Origin: Candidatus Poribacteria bacterium
Lineage (GTDB): Bacteria > Poribacteria > WGA-4E > WGA-3G
Direction of reading: 5' to 3'
NCBI GenBank assembly: GCA_963663765.2
Contig: CAXXUA010000005.1
Span: forward strand, 864,001 to 928,000
Length of the DNA stretch: 64,000 nt
Shown: positions 7,345-52,772 of the stretch, in pieces
How positions within the stretch are numbered: position 1 is the stretch's first letter
Layout of the letters: each line of letters starts with the position of its first letter
The notes under the pieces: model-generated
The model's database searches: none
Seen by the model: only the letters and a program-made list of their open reading frames with translations
What the model was told of the DNA's origin: nothing
Position numbers and translations under genes: made by a program

Positions 7345-7851
7345 TACCAATTCAAATAAATCTTGTCTCATTAAGGAATTCTACTGTTTACTGGCAGGGG
7401 GTTACTCTCTTCGGTAGGAGCGACCTCCAGGTCGCGAACGTCAACCCAAACCTACAACTCTTCGGTAGGAGCGACCTCCAGGTCGCGAACGTCAGCCCAA
7501 ACCTACAACTCCTGGTAGGAGCGACCTCCAGGTCGCGACCGTCAACCCAAACCTACAACTCTTGGTAGGAGCGACCTCACGGTCGCGAACGTCAGCCCAA
7601 ACCTACAACTCTTCGGTAGGAGCGACCTCCCGGTCGCGACCGTCAGCCCAAACCTACAACTCTTGGTAGGAGCGACCTCACGGTCGCGAACGTCAGCCCA
7701 AACCTACAACTCTTCGGTAGGAGCGACCTCCCGGTCGCGAACGTCAACCCAAACCTACAACTCTTGGTAGGAGCGACCTCCCGGTCGCGACCGTGAGGTC
7801 GCTCCTACCAAATTTCCGCTGCTAATGAGACATTATCACATGAAAATGGTA
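7345..7851. mobile_element. MITE, TACCA...TGGTA family, with 3-bp TAA target duplication and an internal REP array
   Basis: TAA at 7342-7344 and 7852-7854; imperfect TIR; interrupts the BrnT gene. Confidence 0.88.
7413..7809 (+). repeat. Eight tandem 50-51-bp GTAG-REP units closed by an inverted REP
   Basis: GGTAGGAGCGACC-tcNN-GGTCGCGA at 7413, 7464, 7514, 7564, 7615, 7665, 7716 and 7766. Confidence 0.93.
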
Positions 7852-14642: not shown

Positions 14643-14830
14643 CATATCGTTCCTACGGAACTCAAGAGAAAGGCGAAGATAGGTATTTCTATAAACATAT
14701 CGTCCCTACGGGACTACGAGTTCAAATTAACGTTGAATGTATATATAATAGCATTCAGTGGGTTGAAAACCCCTCAAACAAGAGGAAGTAGATGTCAAAA
14801 ATCGGGGTTACAAATCCCTTCCACAAGAGG
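14643..14830. repeat. Cluster of REP hairpins
   Basis: CATATCGTTCCTACGGAAC, CATATCGTCCCTACGGGAC and GGGTTGAAAACCCCTC copies, also seen at 18.6k, 42.4k and 47k. Confidence 0.7.
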
Positions 14831-18539: not shown

Positions 18540-18947
18540 CAAGGTTATTTAGTTTTCTATATTTTTCATAGTATTTTGTTATACCGTTAATATTTTGTAA
18601 TACCATCTTGTCCATGTCTTTAGTTCCGTAGGAACGATATGTTTATAGAAAATGTTTTCAACACCAATAGAGTTCCGTAGGAACGATATGTTTATAGAAA
18701 ATGTTTTCAACACCAATAGAGTTCCGTAGGAACGACATAGAAGAATACACATATCGTCCTTATGGGACTAAAGACATGGGGAGGGTAATCGTTATCTATA
18801 AGCATATCGTCCTTACGGGACTAAAGAGCGATATTCAGTTTTCAATAAATTAATATTGATGCGTAAAATTCGGTTAGGAAACCGAACCTGGGTATTAACT
18901 TTCAGTAAATCTCAAGAACAGAAAACTCTTAAAACTGAATAACCCTG
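18540..18947. mobile_element. MITE with CAGGGTTATT ends (ISAs1-like), carrying REPs
   Basis: TIR CA(A/G)GGTTATT(T/C)AGTTTT; flanks GATTTATAG/AATTTATAG; inverted homolog of 46744-47209; internal 49-bp tandem at 18622, 18671 and 18720. Confidence 0.82.
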
Positions 18948-19588: not shown

Positions 19589-19647
19589 GAAATCGGGGTT
19601 GAAAACCCCTCCCACAAGAGGTCAATATCCTTAGATTGACGTTTATG
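19589..19647. mobile_element. Partial copy (one end) of the 142-bp CATA...TATG element next to a REP
   Basis: AATCGGGGTTGAAAACCCCTCCCACAAGAGGTCAATATCCTTAGATTGACGTTTATG matches about 45503-45558. Confidence 0.7.
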
Positions 19648-19815
19648 GTGGGGTTAGGAAACCGTACCTACCTTTGAAAAAAGATAAAATTCCGTTAATT
19701 GGTATAAATCCTGTTCAGGAAAATCCCAAAGTAATAGGACGGTTGAATTTTCTAACCGAGTCAGACCATCGTTTAGAAGATTGATTGAGATTGTTGGGAA
19801 GATGGAACGAAACTA

Positions 19816-40047: not shown

Positions 40048-41997
40048 CTATTCTGATGCTTGTGTGACCTTCTGTTTTTCTATCGTCAACATGCCTTTTG
40101 TGGTCCCGATCCAAGCCCGATTCTTGTCAACGACAATACATTGAATTGCCAAGCCTTCTAATGCTATTTTCGGGTATCCGATAGTTCCCTGATATTCACC
40201 GGTGTGCGGATAAAAGATAGCGACATAGTCGTTCACAGCAACCCATAAAATCTGCGGTGTTTGCGCTGGTTCTCCATTTTCCTTATCATCAGGGGGTTGT
40301 GGATTCACCTTACCAACGATGCCAGTCACGTATATATCATCTGCTTCATCCTGTTCCTCAAAACCCTCTACCACAGAGTAAGACATAACACCTGATCCAT
40401 CGGAGTTAGCTCGGAAAAACCCGTTTGTCATGATTTCAGGATTGTACCAAGAAAAAAGCACTTTCTCACCAACGACATCAAATTTGACAATCTGGCTTTC
40501 TTGAGCGATACGTGTAAAGTGTTGAGACTCCCAGAGTCCTATTTTCCGATTAAAAACAGCGATATTGTCACCAGATGTACCAACCCATACGACATCGGGT
40601 GTTAGTGCAATTGTGTGAACATCATTGGGAACCGGGTCGTTTCCATGATAGTGGAACAGTTCACCGTTCTCACGCACCTGCCGAACAACACCAGCATCTG
40701 TGGCGAACCAAATTTCCTCTTTATCTATTTTTATGTCCCGAATCCACATACTGGGTAAACCGTTGTTTAGTGTGTAATTTCGCGTTTGATGCGAATTTTT
40801 ATTAAAATAGATGACCCCTTGATTTCGCGTGCCAACCCATACGCCAGAGTTATCTACTGCAATTGATTGGACATCTGGAACTTTTGGCACACTGTCGTTA
40901 ATCATCCAGGCAGCAGGTTCATTCACTTTCCATGCACCAGTACCTTCAGTTTCGATTTGTGCTATCCCTTTCGGAGTGCCTATCCAGAGAGATGTACCAT
41001 CAACTGCTATGGTTTGAATACTGGGATCGGGTAAATCTTGTATGAAGATGTTCCAAGCACTCGCTTGACGTATTTCATTTGCTTTTTCGGCTATCAAAGG
41101 ATCATCGGTATTTTGCAGGACAACGTTAGCAATGTTAACCGCAAGTCCTCTTTCACCAGCCTGTAAATAGATGATTGCCCGTTTCAGGTGAGCTTCATCA
41201 ACCCACTTGCTTTTAGGATAAATCCTGATGAACTGATGCAAGGTGTTTAGTGCCTTTTCCGTTTCGCCAGTTTCTGCTTGTAATCCCCCAATTAAGTAGA
41301 CAGCTTTCTCATGTTCAGCAACATTAGGAAATTGCGATATTGATTTTTGCAACAACTCAAGTCCCGCAGCTGTATCGTTCAAATTTTCTACCAGCATGAA
41401 TCCTGTCTGGTAGCTAAGACCTCCAGCAGATTGATGTTCAGGATAGTGTTTTAGTATCAATTGGTAGGCGTTAACGGCTTGGATAATATTCTCTGCAGCG
41501 ATCGCAGTTTCTCCAATTTCTCGTAATTTCGGCACAAGGTCATAGTTCTTTGCATCTAACAGAGCAACAGATTTAAAACGTTGCACTGCTTTCTCAATAT
41601 CTCCATCTTTCTTATATAGTAAACCGAGTTGATAATGTGCATCTACAAATTTCGGAGATTCCTCCAACGCCTTCTCGAATTGCCGTTTTGCTAATTCTGG
41701 TGCTTCTAAGTCTAACAGGTCGCGCCCATTCCGATAATTCTTCGTAGCCGCTTGGTCTGGCACATTTTCAAGATCCGAGATAAAACGGAGCGTATGCCCT
41801 TCTAATGGAAACCTTAACACCTGCTCGTTATATTCAATTTCAAAGTGTGTATCTGTAGAGTTACGCCAAAGTCCCGTGAGTCGGTCACCGTTTGGCATCT
41901 CTACGATGACGTATTGCTCACAGTTCGCCGTGCTTGTGAACAGCACAAAAAGCATAATAAGGCATATATAATAAAATCGAAGGTAAGTGTTCTGCAT
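40048..41997 (-). CDS. Secreted TPR protein with a C-terminal beta-propeller (two-component-regulator propeller-like)
   Basis: Signal peptide; TPRs; repeated LWIGT/VWVGT/IWFAT blades. Confidence 0.82.
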   Translation of the reverse strand: MQNTYLRFYYICLIMLFVLFTSTANCEQYVIVEMPNGDRLTGLWRNSTDTHFEIEYNEQVLRFPLEGHTLRFISDLENVPDQAATKNYRNGRDLLDLEAPELAKRQFEKALEESPKFVDAHYQLGLLYKKDGDIEKAVQRFKSVALLDAKNYDLVPKLREIGETAIAAENIIQAVNAYQLILKHYPEHQSAGGLSYQTGFMLVENLNDTAAGLELLQKSISQFPNVAEHEKAVYLIGGLQAETGETEKALNTLHQFIRIYPKSKWVDEAHLKRAIIYLQAGERGLAVNIANVVLQNTDDPLIAEKANEIRQASAWNIFIQDLPDPSIQTIAVDGTSLWIGTPKGIAQIETEGTGAWKVNEPAAWMINDSVPKVPDVQSIAVDNSGVWVGTRNQGVIYFNKNSHQTRNYTLNNGLPSMWIRDIKIDKEEIWFATDAGVVRQVRENGELFHYHGNDPVPNDVHTIALTPDVVWVGTSGDNIAVFNRKIGLWESQHFTRIAQESQIVKFDVVGEKVLFSWYNPEIMTNGFFRANSDGSGVMSYSVVEGFEEQDEADDIYVTGIVGKVNPQPPDDKENGEPAQTPQILWVAVNDYVAIFYPHTGEYQGTIGYPKIALEGLAIQCIVVDKNRAWIGTTKGMLTIEKQKVTQASE

Positions 41998-42115: not shown

Positions 42116-42281
42116 TAGTAGATTTTAGAATTATTTTTACACATTCAGGTGTAGGAGGGAACTCCGATTCCCGACTATCAAGGCGTTCAGTCGCGATTCG
42201 GAGATCGAAATCAACGGTATGAATGCCTATTGGCATTCCCCGCCTACAGAACAAGTGTAAACTTAATTGTATATTTCACTA
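42116..42281. mobile_element. Nested MITE with TA duplication (IS630-like)
   Basis: The empty site reads TTTTAAAAG and the filled site TA[TAGTAG...TCACTA]TA; ends shared with 63363-63518. Confidence 0.8.
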
Positions 42282-42381
42282 TAAAAGAAGTATCTAAAGT
42301 TTCTATCAAAGCTTGCTTGACGTAAGGATTCTGTGGACATCGTAGGGGCGAGGTTTCCTCGCATGCGTAAAACCTCTGTTC

Positions 42382-43044
42382 GGGCGGGGAGACCCCGCAC
42401 CATAAGCGTCAATTTAAGGATTTTGACGTATTGTGGGAGGGGTTTTCAACCCCGAATTTATGCGCTTTTCCTCTCAAATCGGGGTTGAAAACCCCTCCAA
42501 CAAGAGAAATGACAACAATATTTTCTTAAATTGACGCCTATGGGGCGGGGAAACCCCGCACCATAAGCGTCAATTTAAGGATTTTGACGTATTGTGGGAG
42601 GGGTTTTCAACCCCGAATTTATGCGCTTTTCCTCTCAAATCGGGGTTGAAAACCCCTCCAACAAGAGAAATGACAACAATATTTTCTTAAATTGACACCT
42701 ATGGGGCGGGGAAACCCCGCACCATAAGCGTCAATTTAAGGATTTTGACGTATTGTGGGAGGGGTTTTCAACCCCGAATTTATGCGCTTTTCCTCTCAAA
42801 TCGGGGTTGAAAACCCCTCCAACAAGAGAAATGACAACAATATTTTCTTAAATTGACACTTATGGGGCGGGGAAACCCCGCACCATAAGCGTCAATTTAA
42901 GGATTTTGACGTATTGTGGGAAGGGTTTTCAACCCCGAATTTATGCGCTTTTCCTCTCAAATCGGGGTTGAAAACCCCTCCAACAAGAGAAATGACAACA
43001 ATATTTTCTTAAATTGACGCCTATGGGGCGGGGAGACCCCGCCC
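42382..43044 (+). repeat. Array of four 142-bp CATA...TATG elements alternating with five 19-bp hairpin repeats (161-bp period)
   Basis: Units start at 42401, 42562, 42723 and 42884; the repeat is GGGCGGGGA(G/A)ACCCCGC(A/C)C. Confidence 0.93.
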
Positions 43045-43092
43045 CTACGCACAGTAACCAAAACTTTACACACCCCTATACATCTGTTTGTC

Positions 43093-43155: not shown

Positions 43156-43881
43156 ATGAAAATATTAGGCATTGACACCTCAACCCCTATCGGTAGCGTT
43201 GCACTCATAGATGCGGAGAACATAGTCGCAGAGCATACACTCAATATTGTCCAAGCACATTCTTCCAGACTGATGCCAGCGATTGACAGTGTGTTAAAAT
43301 GGGGAGAAGTTACACCGAAAGACTTAGACGGTTGTGCGGTTGGCATCGGTCCTGGGTCGTTCACAGGTGTGCGTATCGGCGTGGCAACAGCAAAATCTCT
43401 CTGCTACGCAGCTGATATACCCATCGTCGGCGTTTCCACTTTAGAAGCAATTGCTTATAACCTTCGGTGGACAGATGGACACGTCTGTCCAATTCTTGAT
43501 GCACGCAGGAGTGAAATATATGGTAACATCTTCCACGGTGGCGCAGAATGGAAACGGCTCACTGACGATCTCTGTTTGCCGATTGATTCATTCCTTGATG
43601 AACTCAAGGCACATCTATCCCATGATAACGATGTCACCTTCGTTGGAGATGGACTTTCAAGTTATGGAGATGCGATCCATGAAAAATTTGGTAGTAAAGA
43701 GATAGTCTCGGGGTTGAAAACCCCTCCGACAAGAGAAAACGCAGTGCATTTCGCGGACAATATCTTTAATGTACCGCGCGGATCAACAATCGCAAAACTC
43801 GGTGCAAAACGCTTGAAGCAAGGTGATAGTGACAGTTATTGGACTTTGGTGCCGAACTATGTTAGAATTGGATTGTATTAA
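43156..43881 (+). CDS. tsaB: tRNA threonylcarbamoyladenosine biosynthesis protein TsaB, with an in-frame repeat insertion
   Basis: ILGIDTST, HSSRLMPAI, GPGSFTGVRIG, DARRSEIY and LVPNYVR motifs. Confidence 0.95.
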   Translation: MKILGIDTSTPIGSVALIDAENIVAEHTLNIVQAHSSRLMPAIDSVLKWGEVTPKDLDGCAVGIGPGSFTGVRIGVATAKSLCYAADIPIVGVSTLEAIAYNLRWTDGHVCPILDARRSEIYGNIFHGGAEWKRLTDDLCLPIDSFLDELKAHLSHDNDVTFVGDGLSSYGDAIHEKFGSKEIVSGLKTPPTRENAVHFADNIFNVPRGSTIAKLGAKRLKQGDSDSYWTLVPNYVRIGLY

Positions 43882-45393: not shown

Positions 45394-45603
45394 GCGGGGA
45401 ATGCCATAGGCGAATTCATAGGCGTCAATTTAAGAAAAAAGTGTTGGTGTTTCTCTTGTGGGAGGGGTTTTCAACCCCGATTTGAGAGGAAAATCGCGTA
45501 AAATCGGGGTTGAAAACCCCTCCCACAAGAGGTCAAAATCCTTAAATTGACGTCTATGGCGAAAGCTATAGGCGCATTCATACCGTTGGATGCGTAAGTC
45601 CTG
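45371..45603. mobile_element. MITE, CAGGACTTACGCA-end family, with nested elements; overlaps the flippase stop
   Basis: CAGAACTTACGCA ... TGCGTAAGTCCTG. Confidence 0.8.
45417..45558 (-). mobile_element. Single 142-bp CATA...TATG element with an imperfect 20-bp flanking direct repeat
   Basis: TIR CATAGGCGTCAATTTAAG; flanks GGGAATGCCATAGGCGAATT / GCGAAAGCTATAGGCGCATT (16/20). Confidence 0.85.
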
Positions 45604-46743: not shown

Positions 46744-47209
46744 CAGGGTTATTTAGTTTTAAGAGTTTTCTGTTATTGAGATTTACTGAAAGTTAATACC
46801 CAGGTTTGGTTTCCTAACCGAACTTTCTGCATCAGTTTTAGATTATTGAAAAATGAATATCGCTCTTTAGTCCCGTAGGGACGATATGTTTATAGAAAAC
46901 GAATACCCTCCCCAGTTCTTTAGTCCCGTAGGGACGATATGTTTATAGAAAACGAATACCCTCCCCAGTTCTTTAGTCCCGTAGGGACGATATGTTTATA
47001 GAAAACGAATACCCTCCCCAGTTCTTTAGTCCCGTAGGGACGATATGTTTATTTTTCTATGTCGTTCCTACGGAACTCAAGAGGGATAGATAACATGTTT
47101 CTATAAACATATCGTCCCTACGGGACTAAAGACATGGACAAGATGGCAACACATAAAATTAACGACATAGCAAAATATTATCAATAATATTGAAAACTGA
47201 ATAACCCTG
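46744..47209. mobile_element. MITE with CAGGGTTATT ends (ISAs1-like) and a 53-bp REP tandem
   Basis: TIR CAGGGTTATT(T/C)AGTTTT; tandem units at 46865, 46918, 46971 and 47024. Confidence 0.85.
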
Positions 47210-52462: not shown

Positions 52463-52570
52463 GAATTCCTACTCGTTTTACATAAGTAGAAGTTTTTTTG
52501 AAAACAATTTAGCACATTCTTTGTAAAGTATACCATAAATTTTATGAATTTTCAATCTTTTGGAAAACCC

Positions 52571-52753
52571 GGGTGTGTAAAGTTTTGGTTACTGTGCGTA
52601 GGGGCGGGGTCTCCCCGCCCGAACAGAAGTTTTACGCGGGCGAGGAGACCTCGCCCCTACGATGTCCACAGTTCCCTAACGTCAAGTAAGCTTTAATAGA
52701 AACTGGACGGACTTCTTTTAAAATCTGGGTTTCTACAAAAACTTTACACACCC
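52571..52753. mobile_element. 183-bp MITE with GGGTGTGTAAAG ends, 8-bp TSD GAAAACCC and a REP doublet
   Basis: TIRs match the 8340 IS; TSD at 52563-52570 and 52754-52761. Confidence 0.92.
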
Positions 52754-52772
52754 GAAAACCCAAATGCACCTT

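Follow-up and report, generated by a model that had tools for sequence, protein, structure and literature searches.

A 142-bp MITE with IS231-like ends and 19-20-bp target duplications alternates with a REP hairpin in a poribacterial array

IS231A has the target consensus GGG(N)5CCC, and a symmetric target preference is also found in Tn10. MIC231 cassettes are non-autonomous derivatives of IS231 that keep only the ends of the element, as does the MITE described here. Table 1 of De Palmenaer 2008 (PMC2266710) gives CAT-------AA--TAA as the end signature of the IS231 subgroup, and the same survey reports target duplications of 10-12 bp for IS231 and of 7-13 bp for the IS4 family as a whole, a length termed 'one DNA helix turn'. 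Duplication length serves as a defining and mechanistically meaningful character of transposase families, and PMC2266710 equates IS4 with 'one helix turn'. IS1634/IS1549 are described there as IS4-related DDE elements with long duplications; these are highly variable (8-514 bp) and belong to a family without the R of the YREK motif (PMC2266710). Among small elements, the Nezha-type MITE of cyanobacteria is presented as TIR-bounded, flanked by direct repeats and sharing its ends with an IS of another genome (PMC3184786).

Here we describe an array in a stretch of poribacterial DNA of 64,000 nucleotides (hereafter the window). An earlier note, made from the letters alone, had described four 142-bp TIR-bounded units alternating with five copies of a 19-bp palindrome. 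Direct reading of 42382-43044 gives four 142-bp units with 18-bp TIRs and five 19-bp spacers in alternation (Table 1), and Tandem Repeats Finder places a single array at 42382-43042, with a period of 161, 4.1 copies, 98% matches and a score of 1280. Of the five 19-mers, however, the last alone matches the palindrome exactly; the first is one base off and the second to fourth are two bases off. The CRISPR-like architecture proposed for the array is superficial, the would-be CRISPR 'spacers' being 98-100% identical copies of one transposon.

Table 1. Features of the array, of the repeat that hosts it and of related copies in the window
Feature	Position	Strand	Remark
Target copy 1, 19 bp	42382..42400	.	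1 mismatch to palindrome
MITE unit 1, 142 bp, 18-bp TIRs	42401..42542	+	
Target copy 2	42543..42561	.	2 mismatches; same sequence as copies 3 and 4
MITE unit 2	42562..42703	+	99.3% to unit 1
Target copy 3	42704..42722	.	2 mismatches; same sequence as copies 2 and 4
MITE unit 3	42723..42864	+	98.6% to unit 1
Target copy 4	42865..42883	.	2 mismatches; same sequence as copies 2 and 3
MITE unit 4	42884..43025	+	99.3% to unit 1
Target copy 5, exact 19-bp palindrome, then CTAC	43026..43044	.	
Host repeat, older than the array and about 180 bp long when the array is left out; internal REP hairpin is the target	42254..43075	-	From alignment to sister copy; ends approximate
Sister of the host element, serving as paralogous empty site, with the 19-mer once (52602-52620)	52571..52753	+	
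Solo MITE (45417-45558) with 20-bp flanking repeat (45397-45416 / 45559-45578), 16/20	45397..45578	-	91% to unit 1
Half MITE, 58 bp, one TIR, end at 19647; 20-bp hairpin-like flank (19648-19667)	19590..19667	-	

The array lies in a 1.16-kb gap between divergent ORFs at 40048-41997 (minus strand) and 43156-43881 (plus strand), whose products, in our own reading of the sequence, are a putative TPR/propeller-like protein and a putative TsaB-like protein. The 142-bp unit is non-coding, as no ORF fits within it, and a stretch of spacer, unit and spacer folds into one long hairpin (-61 kcal/mol, z-score -12.7). A search of Rfam gave 16 matches, all far under the gathering scores, and no match to CRISPR repeat families.

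Other repeats are present in the window. The small hairpin module inside the MITE recurs as an in-frame 31-nt copy (97%) at 43708-43738, within the TsaB-like ORF, and again at 14760-14829. Tandem arrays of other, hairpin-bearing units of about 50 bp are found at 7407-7794, 18622-18735 and 46864-47052 (periods 50, 49 and 53; at most 7.7 copies, 93-100% matches).

The repeat element that hosts the array also has a paralogous empty site. In an alignment to 52560-52770, taken as reverse complement, the sequence left of the array runs up to position 150, and the last spacer with the right flank runs from position 150. The flanks thus adjoin, and the paralogue at 52571-52753 has the 19-mer once, followed by CTAC. 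This confirms the empty-site control that had been claimed: the sister element is unbroken across the insertion point. The duplication of a whole 19-bp hairpin at this site is supported as well. The two other copies in the window are also as described before, the solo unit having the 16/20 direct repeat on both sides and the partial copy adjoining a GGTT...AACC hairpin followed by CTAC.

We searched the genome (6.35 Mb in 15 contigs, 97.8% complete) and found 143 MITE copies with both TIRs. Direct repeats of 19 bp (56 copies), 20 bp (44) or 21 bp (2) flank 102 of the 143, and 61 of these repeats are perfect; pairing left and right flanks at random gives such a repeat in 95 of 2842 cases. The long duplication seen at first in a few copies of the window therefore holds genome-wide. 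The 102 flanked copies have 75 distinct repeat sequences, and 69 non-adjacent pairs of copies are at least 99.3% identical yet carry different duplications. Accordingly, the repeat belongs to the site and not to the element, which makes it an unusually long target-site duplication. For the other 41 copies no matching repeat is found, and several of them adjoin tandem arrays of the commonest REP.

The element is thus short and non-coding and has TIRs, many copies, target duplications, an empty site and ends shared with an IS (see below), as expected for a MITE. A search for its DNA was positive in 19 of 24 genomes of the same genus and in 1 of 16 genomes of the order's other families. Excision footprints, which would be exact target-target tandems of period 19-20 if cut-and-paste excision left them, are not enriched: the two periods have 3 and 1 exact tandems, none of GG...CC type, compared to 34 for a period of 18 and 24 for a period of 21.

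The REP unit with the highest copy number (around 950 near-copies of its 19-mer) forms tandem arrays that start exactly at MITE ends, for example on contigs C5 (1451065 and 1574010), C8 (102897), C2 (50379-51526), C4 (650664-651783) and C14 (3956-5433). Some of these REP arrays fill elements of 1.0-1.5 kb that are bounded by TIRs of the MITE family and by 19-20-bp duplications; such elements therefore seem to carry REP arrays along or to be where these arrays expand. We also observed an IS of about 1.1 kb (famA) in around ten copies (99.5% identical; C3:495132-496230 and 9 others), the terminal bases of which recur as a short module in some MITE variants and as one duplicated target.

The MITE had been proposed to be non-autonomous and mobilized by an enzyme encoded elsewhere, with IS4 as one of three enzyme classes named beforehand. 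Both proposals are supported by the same-genus genomes. Of 40 genomes from the genus, 16 have matches to the IS4-family profile NF033592 past its cut-off, often in many copies. At 80 of 90 loci examined in these genomes, TIRs of the MITE family lie 1.40-1.52 kb apart around a single ORF, and 68 of these 80 IS loci have duplications, of 17 (7 loci), 18 (13), 19 (23) or 20 bp (25). The partner of the MITE is thus an IS4-family DDE transposase encoded on a 1.45-kb IS in same-genus genomes, and not in the assembled genome of the window.

The partner protein scores 211 bits with NF033592 (cut-off 115) and matches DDE_Tnp_1 (PF01609) with an E value of 4e-22. Its ORF encodes 429-454 amino acids in most copies checked (around 440) and 493 in one. 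In an alignment of 11 sequences, D119, D191, E324, R320 and K331 are invariant; R320, E324 and K331 belong to the YREK motif, the Y of which is found in only 4 of the 11 proteins. The MITE and the IS share only the terminal 20-24 bp or so of each end. The link between them therefore rests on the ends and on the duplication length, not on internal sequence.

Several searches for the partner were made in the genome of the window itself. A tblastn search with two partner proteins gave no match at E 1e-3, NF033592 gave none at its cut-off, and none of the 76 DDE_Tnp_1 matches is flanked by the MITE end motif. Pairs of TIRs that have matching flanks and lie at most 12 kb from each other enclose no partner in this genome, and in relatives no transposase lies within the seven half-MITE match sites. 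Two other IS families of the genome were considered as partners and rejected, having other ends and short duplications. Another candidate, a TIR-bounded element of 1807 bp with a 416-aa ORF (C4:1180654-1182460), was rejected as a MITE that carries a nested Tn5-like IS (NF033590, Dimer_Tnp_Tn5) of about 1660 bp with its own TIRs and 9-bp duplications. This IS is unrelated to the mobility of the MITE. It has four 99.8% identical copies (also at C6:430082-431741, C6:355575-357233 and C5:1130419-1132078), 1-2 of them inside MITEs, and the copy on C4 reads frameshifted near the N-terminus. That many identical MITE copies are found despite the absent transposase may mean that the enzyme was lost, is unassembled or is missed at 97.8% completeness.

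Next, we examined the targets. Their consensus is two-fold symmetric, g|GG(G/T)-N13-14-(C/A)CC|c, with G at position -1 in 66-75% of sites, GG(G/T) at positions 1-3 in 59-94%, (C/A)CC as the last three bases and C at position +1 in 81-84%. Among the 75 distinct targets, 29 are strongly palindromic compared to 1.8% of random genomic k-mers, a share greater than the end consensus alone obviously predicts, and 42 belong to REP-like families with at least 10 genomic copies. The GTAG/CTAC-tagged REP hairpins of 19-20 bp that abound in this genome fit the symmetric target exactly.

This preference bears on the idea that hairpins, once extruded, are recognised by an integrase (structure-targeting, Cas1-like or other) that cuts at either side of the stem, so that the duplication is the hairpin. 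In many cases the target is indeed a REP hairpin, and the duplication covers exactly the stretch between its two stem bases. But 35 of the 75 have no symmetry beyond the GG...CC ends (at most 4 symmetric pairs) and 14 of the 75 are unique DNA (at most 2 genomic occurrences), and both groups show the same 19-20-bp duplication. A hairpin is therefore favoured but not needed. In IS copies of sister genomes, duplications in one REP family do follow the length of that REP, between 17 and 20 bp. Within one IS lineage, nevertheless, non-REP targets have the same duplication length as REP targets to within 1 bp. The length goes with the lineage (17-18, 18, 18-19, 19-20 or 20 bp) and varies by at most 1 bp within each. 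Such lineage tracking with 1 bp of play could also mean that the cuts are set by two half-sites rather than by a rigid ruler.

The genome does encode four Cas1 matches, at C4:134106-134975, C4:1024422-1025258, C6:209098-209934 and C6:411790-412635, the only contigs involved being C4 and C6; one of the four is in an open frame of 604 aa and may be a fusion. None is found on the contig of the window, nothing links these genes to the MITE ends and they are unrelated to the array, whereas the same ends bound DDE transposase genes at 80 loci. The IS231 relatives likewise use targets of GG...CC type, with a duplication of 11 bp. These data are explained by a DDE transposase whose stagger is long and fixed and whose target preference is symmetric, and neither a hairpin-cutting nor a Cas1-like integrase is needed. 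We consider the hairpin-cutting explanation already largely refuted and very improbable.

The same genome allowed us to ask how the array arose. We found 16 arrays of at least two units with spacers of duplication length. In six of them, neighbours are only 55-90% identical, being of unlike subfamily or length, and each is closer to copies elsewhere; in two of these six, units of opposite orientation are joined by the same spacer (C6:20521, '++--', and C13:303664, '+-'). For these, only independent insertions into the regenerated target are possible. In the remaining arrays, including the one in the window, neighbours are 97.9-100% identical and closer to each other than to outside copies. Both routes proposed in the earlier note, re-insertion and recombination across the long repeat, thus occur among the 16 arrays.

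In the window, adjacent units are 99.3, 99.3 and 97.9% identical, compared to 97.2, 96.5 and 95.8% with the best copy elsewhere. Genome-wide, all 12 adjacent pairs that are each other's closest relatives have the same orientation, with a chance of about 2^-12 if orientation is random on near-palindromic targets. Co-oriented and mutually closest neighbours are what unequal crossing-over or slippage predicts and not what re-insertion in random orientation predicts. The inner three spacers moreover share two derived changes, which fits the amplification of one 161-bp unit. We conclude that the fourfold array probably grew by unequal recombination or slippage.

Three further transpositions into the regenerated 19-bp target would be the other way to build it. 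Re-insertion is real in this genome, as the mixed arrays and their opposite orientations show, the regenerated 19-mer is a preferred site and the same spacer pattern could result. But the four units have one orientation and resemble one another more than they do the remaining 139 copies, the 12 co-oriented pairs and the two changes common to the inner spacers argue against it, and the transposase that serial transposition would use is missing from the assembly. We therefore think re-insertion unlikely for this array.

As the metagenome-assembled genome is rich in repeats, we also considered that its assembly had produced the array, or the number of units in it, artificially. Unit-specific sequences at the junctions of units 2 and 3 and of units 3 and 4 match short contigs of the public runs X6, X8 and X9 with 0 differences, and the junction of units 1 and 2 matches one contig of run X7 with 1 difference. 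Read data thus contain all three internal junctions as distinct sequences; the reads behind the assembly may be among these runs, whose contigs are short. No contig spans the whole array among the listed pieces of the four runs, and contigs that 'skip 644' exist, but the latter are expected because the host element has many paralogues in which the hairpin stands once. Together with private variants in each unit and 15 other arrays of like build in the genome, this makes an artefact extremely improbable.

To place the partner, we compared it with IS231 and with more distant relatives. The TIR of the MITE fits the IS231 signature, with CAT at 1-3, AA at 11-12 and TAA at 15-17. IS231A and IS231C, which we measured on Bacillus thuringiensis plasmids, are about 1655 bp long, have 11-bp duplications and share 13 of 18 TIR bases with the MITE; a relative in B. 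cereus also has an 11-bp duplication, of GG...CCC type. The partner is 25-29% identical in protein sequence to the Bacillus elements. Its closest plasmid-borne relatives are found in Herpetosiphon (33% identity, 20-21-bp duplications) and Chlorohelix (32%, 20 bp).

Based on a survey of 72 loci with one genome per species, ends of the family type together with duplications of 18-21 bp are found at 48 loci, two of which scored 24 bp with ends set two bases inward. One further locus has 12 bp and 23 have no ends or no repeat. The 48 loci belong to Poribacteria, Chloroflexota (Dehalococcoidia, Herpetosiphon, Ktedonobacter and Ktedonospora), Planctomycetota (Stieleria and Gemmataceae), Acidobacteriota (Blastocatellia), Methylobacter luteus and a Clostridia MAG. 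In a quick maximum-likelihood tree of 60 rows with an arbitrary root, IS231, two Clostridium elements and ISH8E are apart from all long-duplication elements, and poribacterial subclades have duplications of 20, 19 and 17-19 bp. One locus in a Planctomycetaceae MAG (L202), on a long branch, alone in the long-duplication group duplicates 12 bp, of GGG...CCC type, and may have reverted naturally to a single helical turn.

The end signature is therefore that of the IS231 subgroup, while the partner neither clusters with that subgroup in the quick tree nor shares its 10-12-bp duplications. At 17-21 bp in MITEs and IS copies, the duplications are also outside the 7-13 bp of the IS4 family. Full-text searches gave no paper on duplications of at least 17 bp for IS4-family elements; ISfinder may record the trait. 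We tentatively suggest, at somewhat less than even confidence, a large and apparently unnamed IS231-like radiation of IS4 elements in Poribacteria, Chloroflexota, Planctomycetota, Acidobacteriota and some Proteobacteria. Its members would have a two-turn stagger of 17-21 bp, specific to each lineage within 1 bp, and a symmetric GGK...MCC site of exactly that length, would pile up in arrays and would have their spread tied to the REP hairpins of the host.

Taken together, we consider it highly likely that the locus is explained by a MITE with IS231-like ends, an IS4 DDE partner with a 19-20-bp stagger, insertion into a REP hairpin and subsequent tandem amplification. The 142-bp MITE, which lacks a transposase, would keep only the 20 bp or so at each end of an IS231-like IS of the IS4 family, and its partner would be a cut-and-paste DDE transposase of Tn5/IS231 type with around 440 aa. 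This enzyme would join the element ends to target strands 19-20 bp apart, about two helical turns compared to about one in the named IS4 members, and gap repair would then duplicate the 19-20 bp.

We infer that the duplex rather than the hairpin is recognised: the enzyme would prefer the symmetric site given above and would require no hairpin. As REP hairpins fit the preferred site exactly, whole hairpins are duplicated, and as each insertion leaves two preferred sites, further insertions can land alongside. The long direct repeats would in turn invite unequal recombination or replication slippage. For the array in the window, one insertion into the REP hairpin of the older element would have been followed by tandem amplification of the 161-bp unit of MITE and target.

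If the two-turn IS4 clade is real, it provides a natural series of 11, 17, 18, 19, 20 and 21 bp for the spacing of strand transfer. With this series one could ask how the spacing of the two strand-transfer sites is gauged within a Tn5-like synaptic complex. In metagenome-assembled genomes, arrays built of a MITE plus a long duplication resemble CRISPR-like or minisatellite architecture, and annotation and assembly can be misled by them. For this lineage of sponge symbionts, REP hairpins are landing pads that a transposon duplicates. The MITE itself is ordinary; the unusual feature is that an IS4-type lineage duplicates two turns, together with the breadth of this trait. New in this study are the analysis of array origin, the measured IS231 comparators and the survey across phyla.

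Compared to CRISPR arrays and casposons, the locus has in common a short palindromic repeat that alternates with longer units and is duplicated at insertion. It differs in that the intervening units are one TIR element instead of unique spacers, in having no adjacent cas genes and in its DDE enzyme. The Nezha-type MITE, as far as it is described in PMC3184786, is likewise small, non-coding, TIR-bounded and strongly folding, and a different IS family is likely. IS1634/IS1549 vary widely in duplication length, whereas the length here is fixed within 1 bp per lineage; the IS1634 profile NF033559 gives 41 bits on the partner compared to a cut-off of 100, which places it outside that family. Tn5/IS50 and Tn10/IS10 belong to the same IS4 family and presumably use the same hairpin-mediated cut-and-paste chemistry, but they duplicate 9 bp and not 17-21 bp.

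The closest system is IS231A and its IS231 relatives in the Bacillus cereus group, which share with the family described here the end signature as tabulated in PMC2266710, 13 of 18 TIR bases, a single-ORF DDE transposase (NF033592, DDE_Tnp_1) and a GG...CC target. Unlike IS231, the family described here makes duplications of 17-21 bp instead of 10-12 bp, has only 25-29% protein identity to it and the Y of YREK in 4 of 11 proteins, and falls outside the IS231 clade in the quick tree. Its hosts are Poribacteria, Chloroflexota, Planctomycetota and others, compared to Bacillus for IS231.
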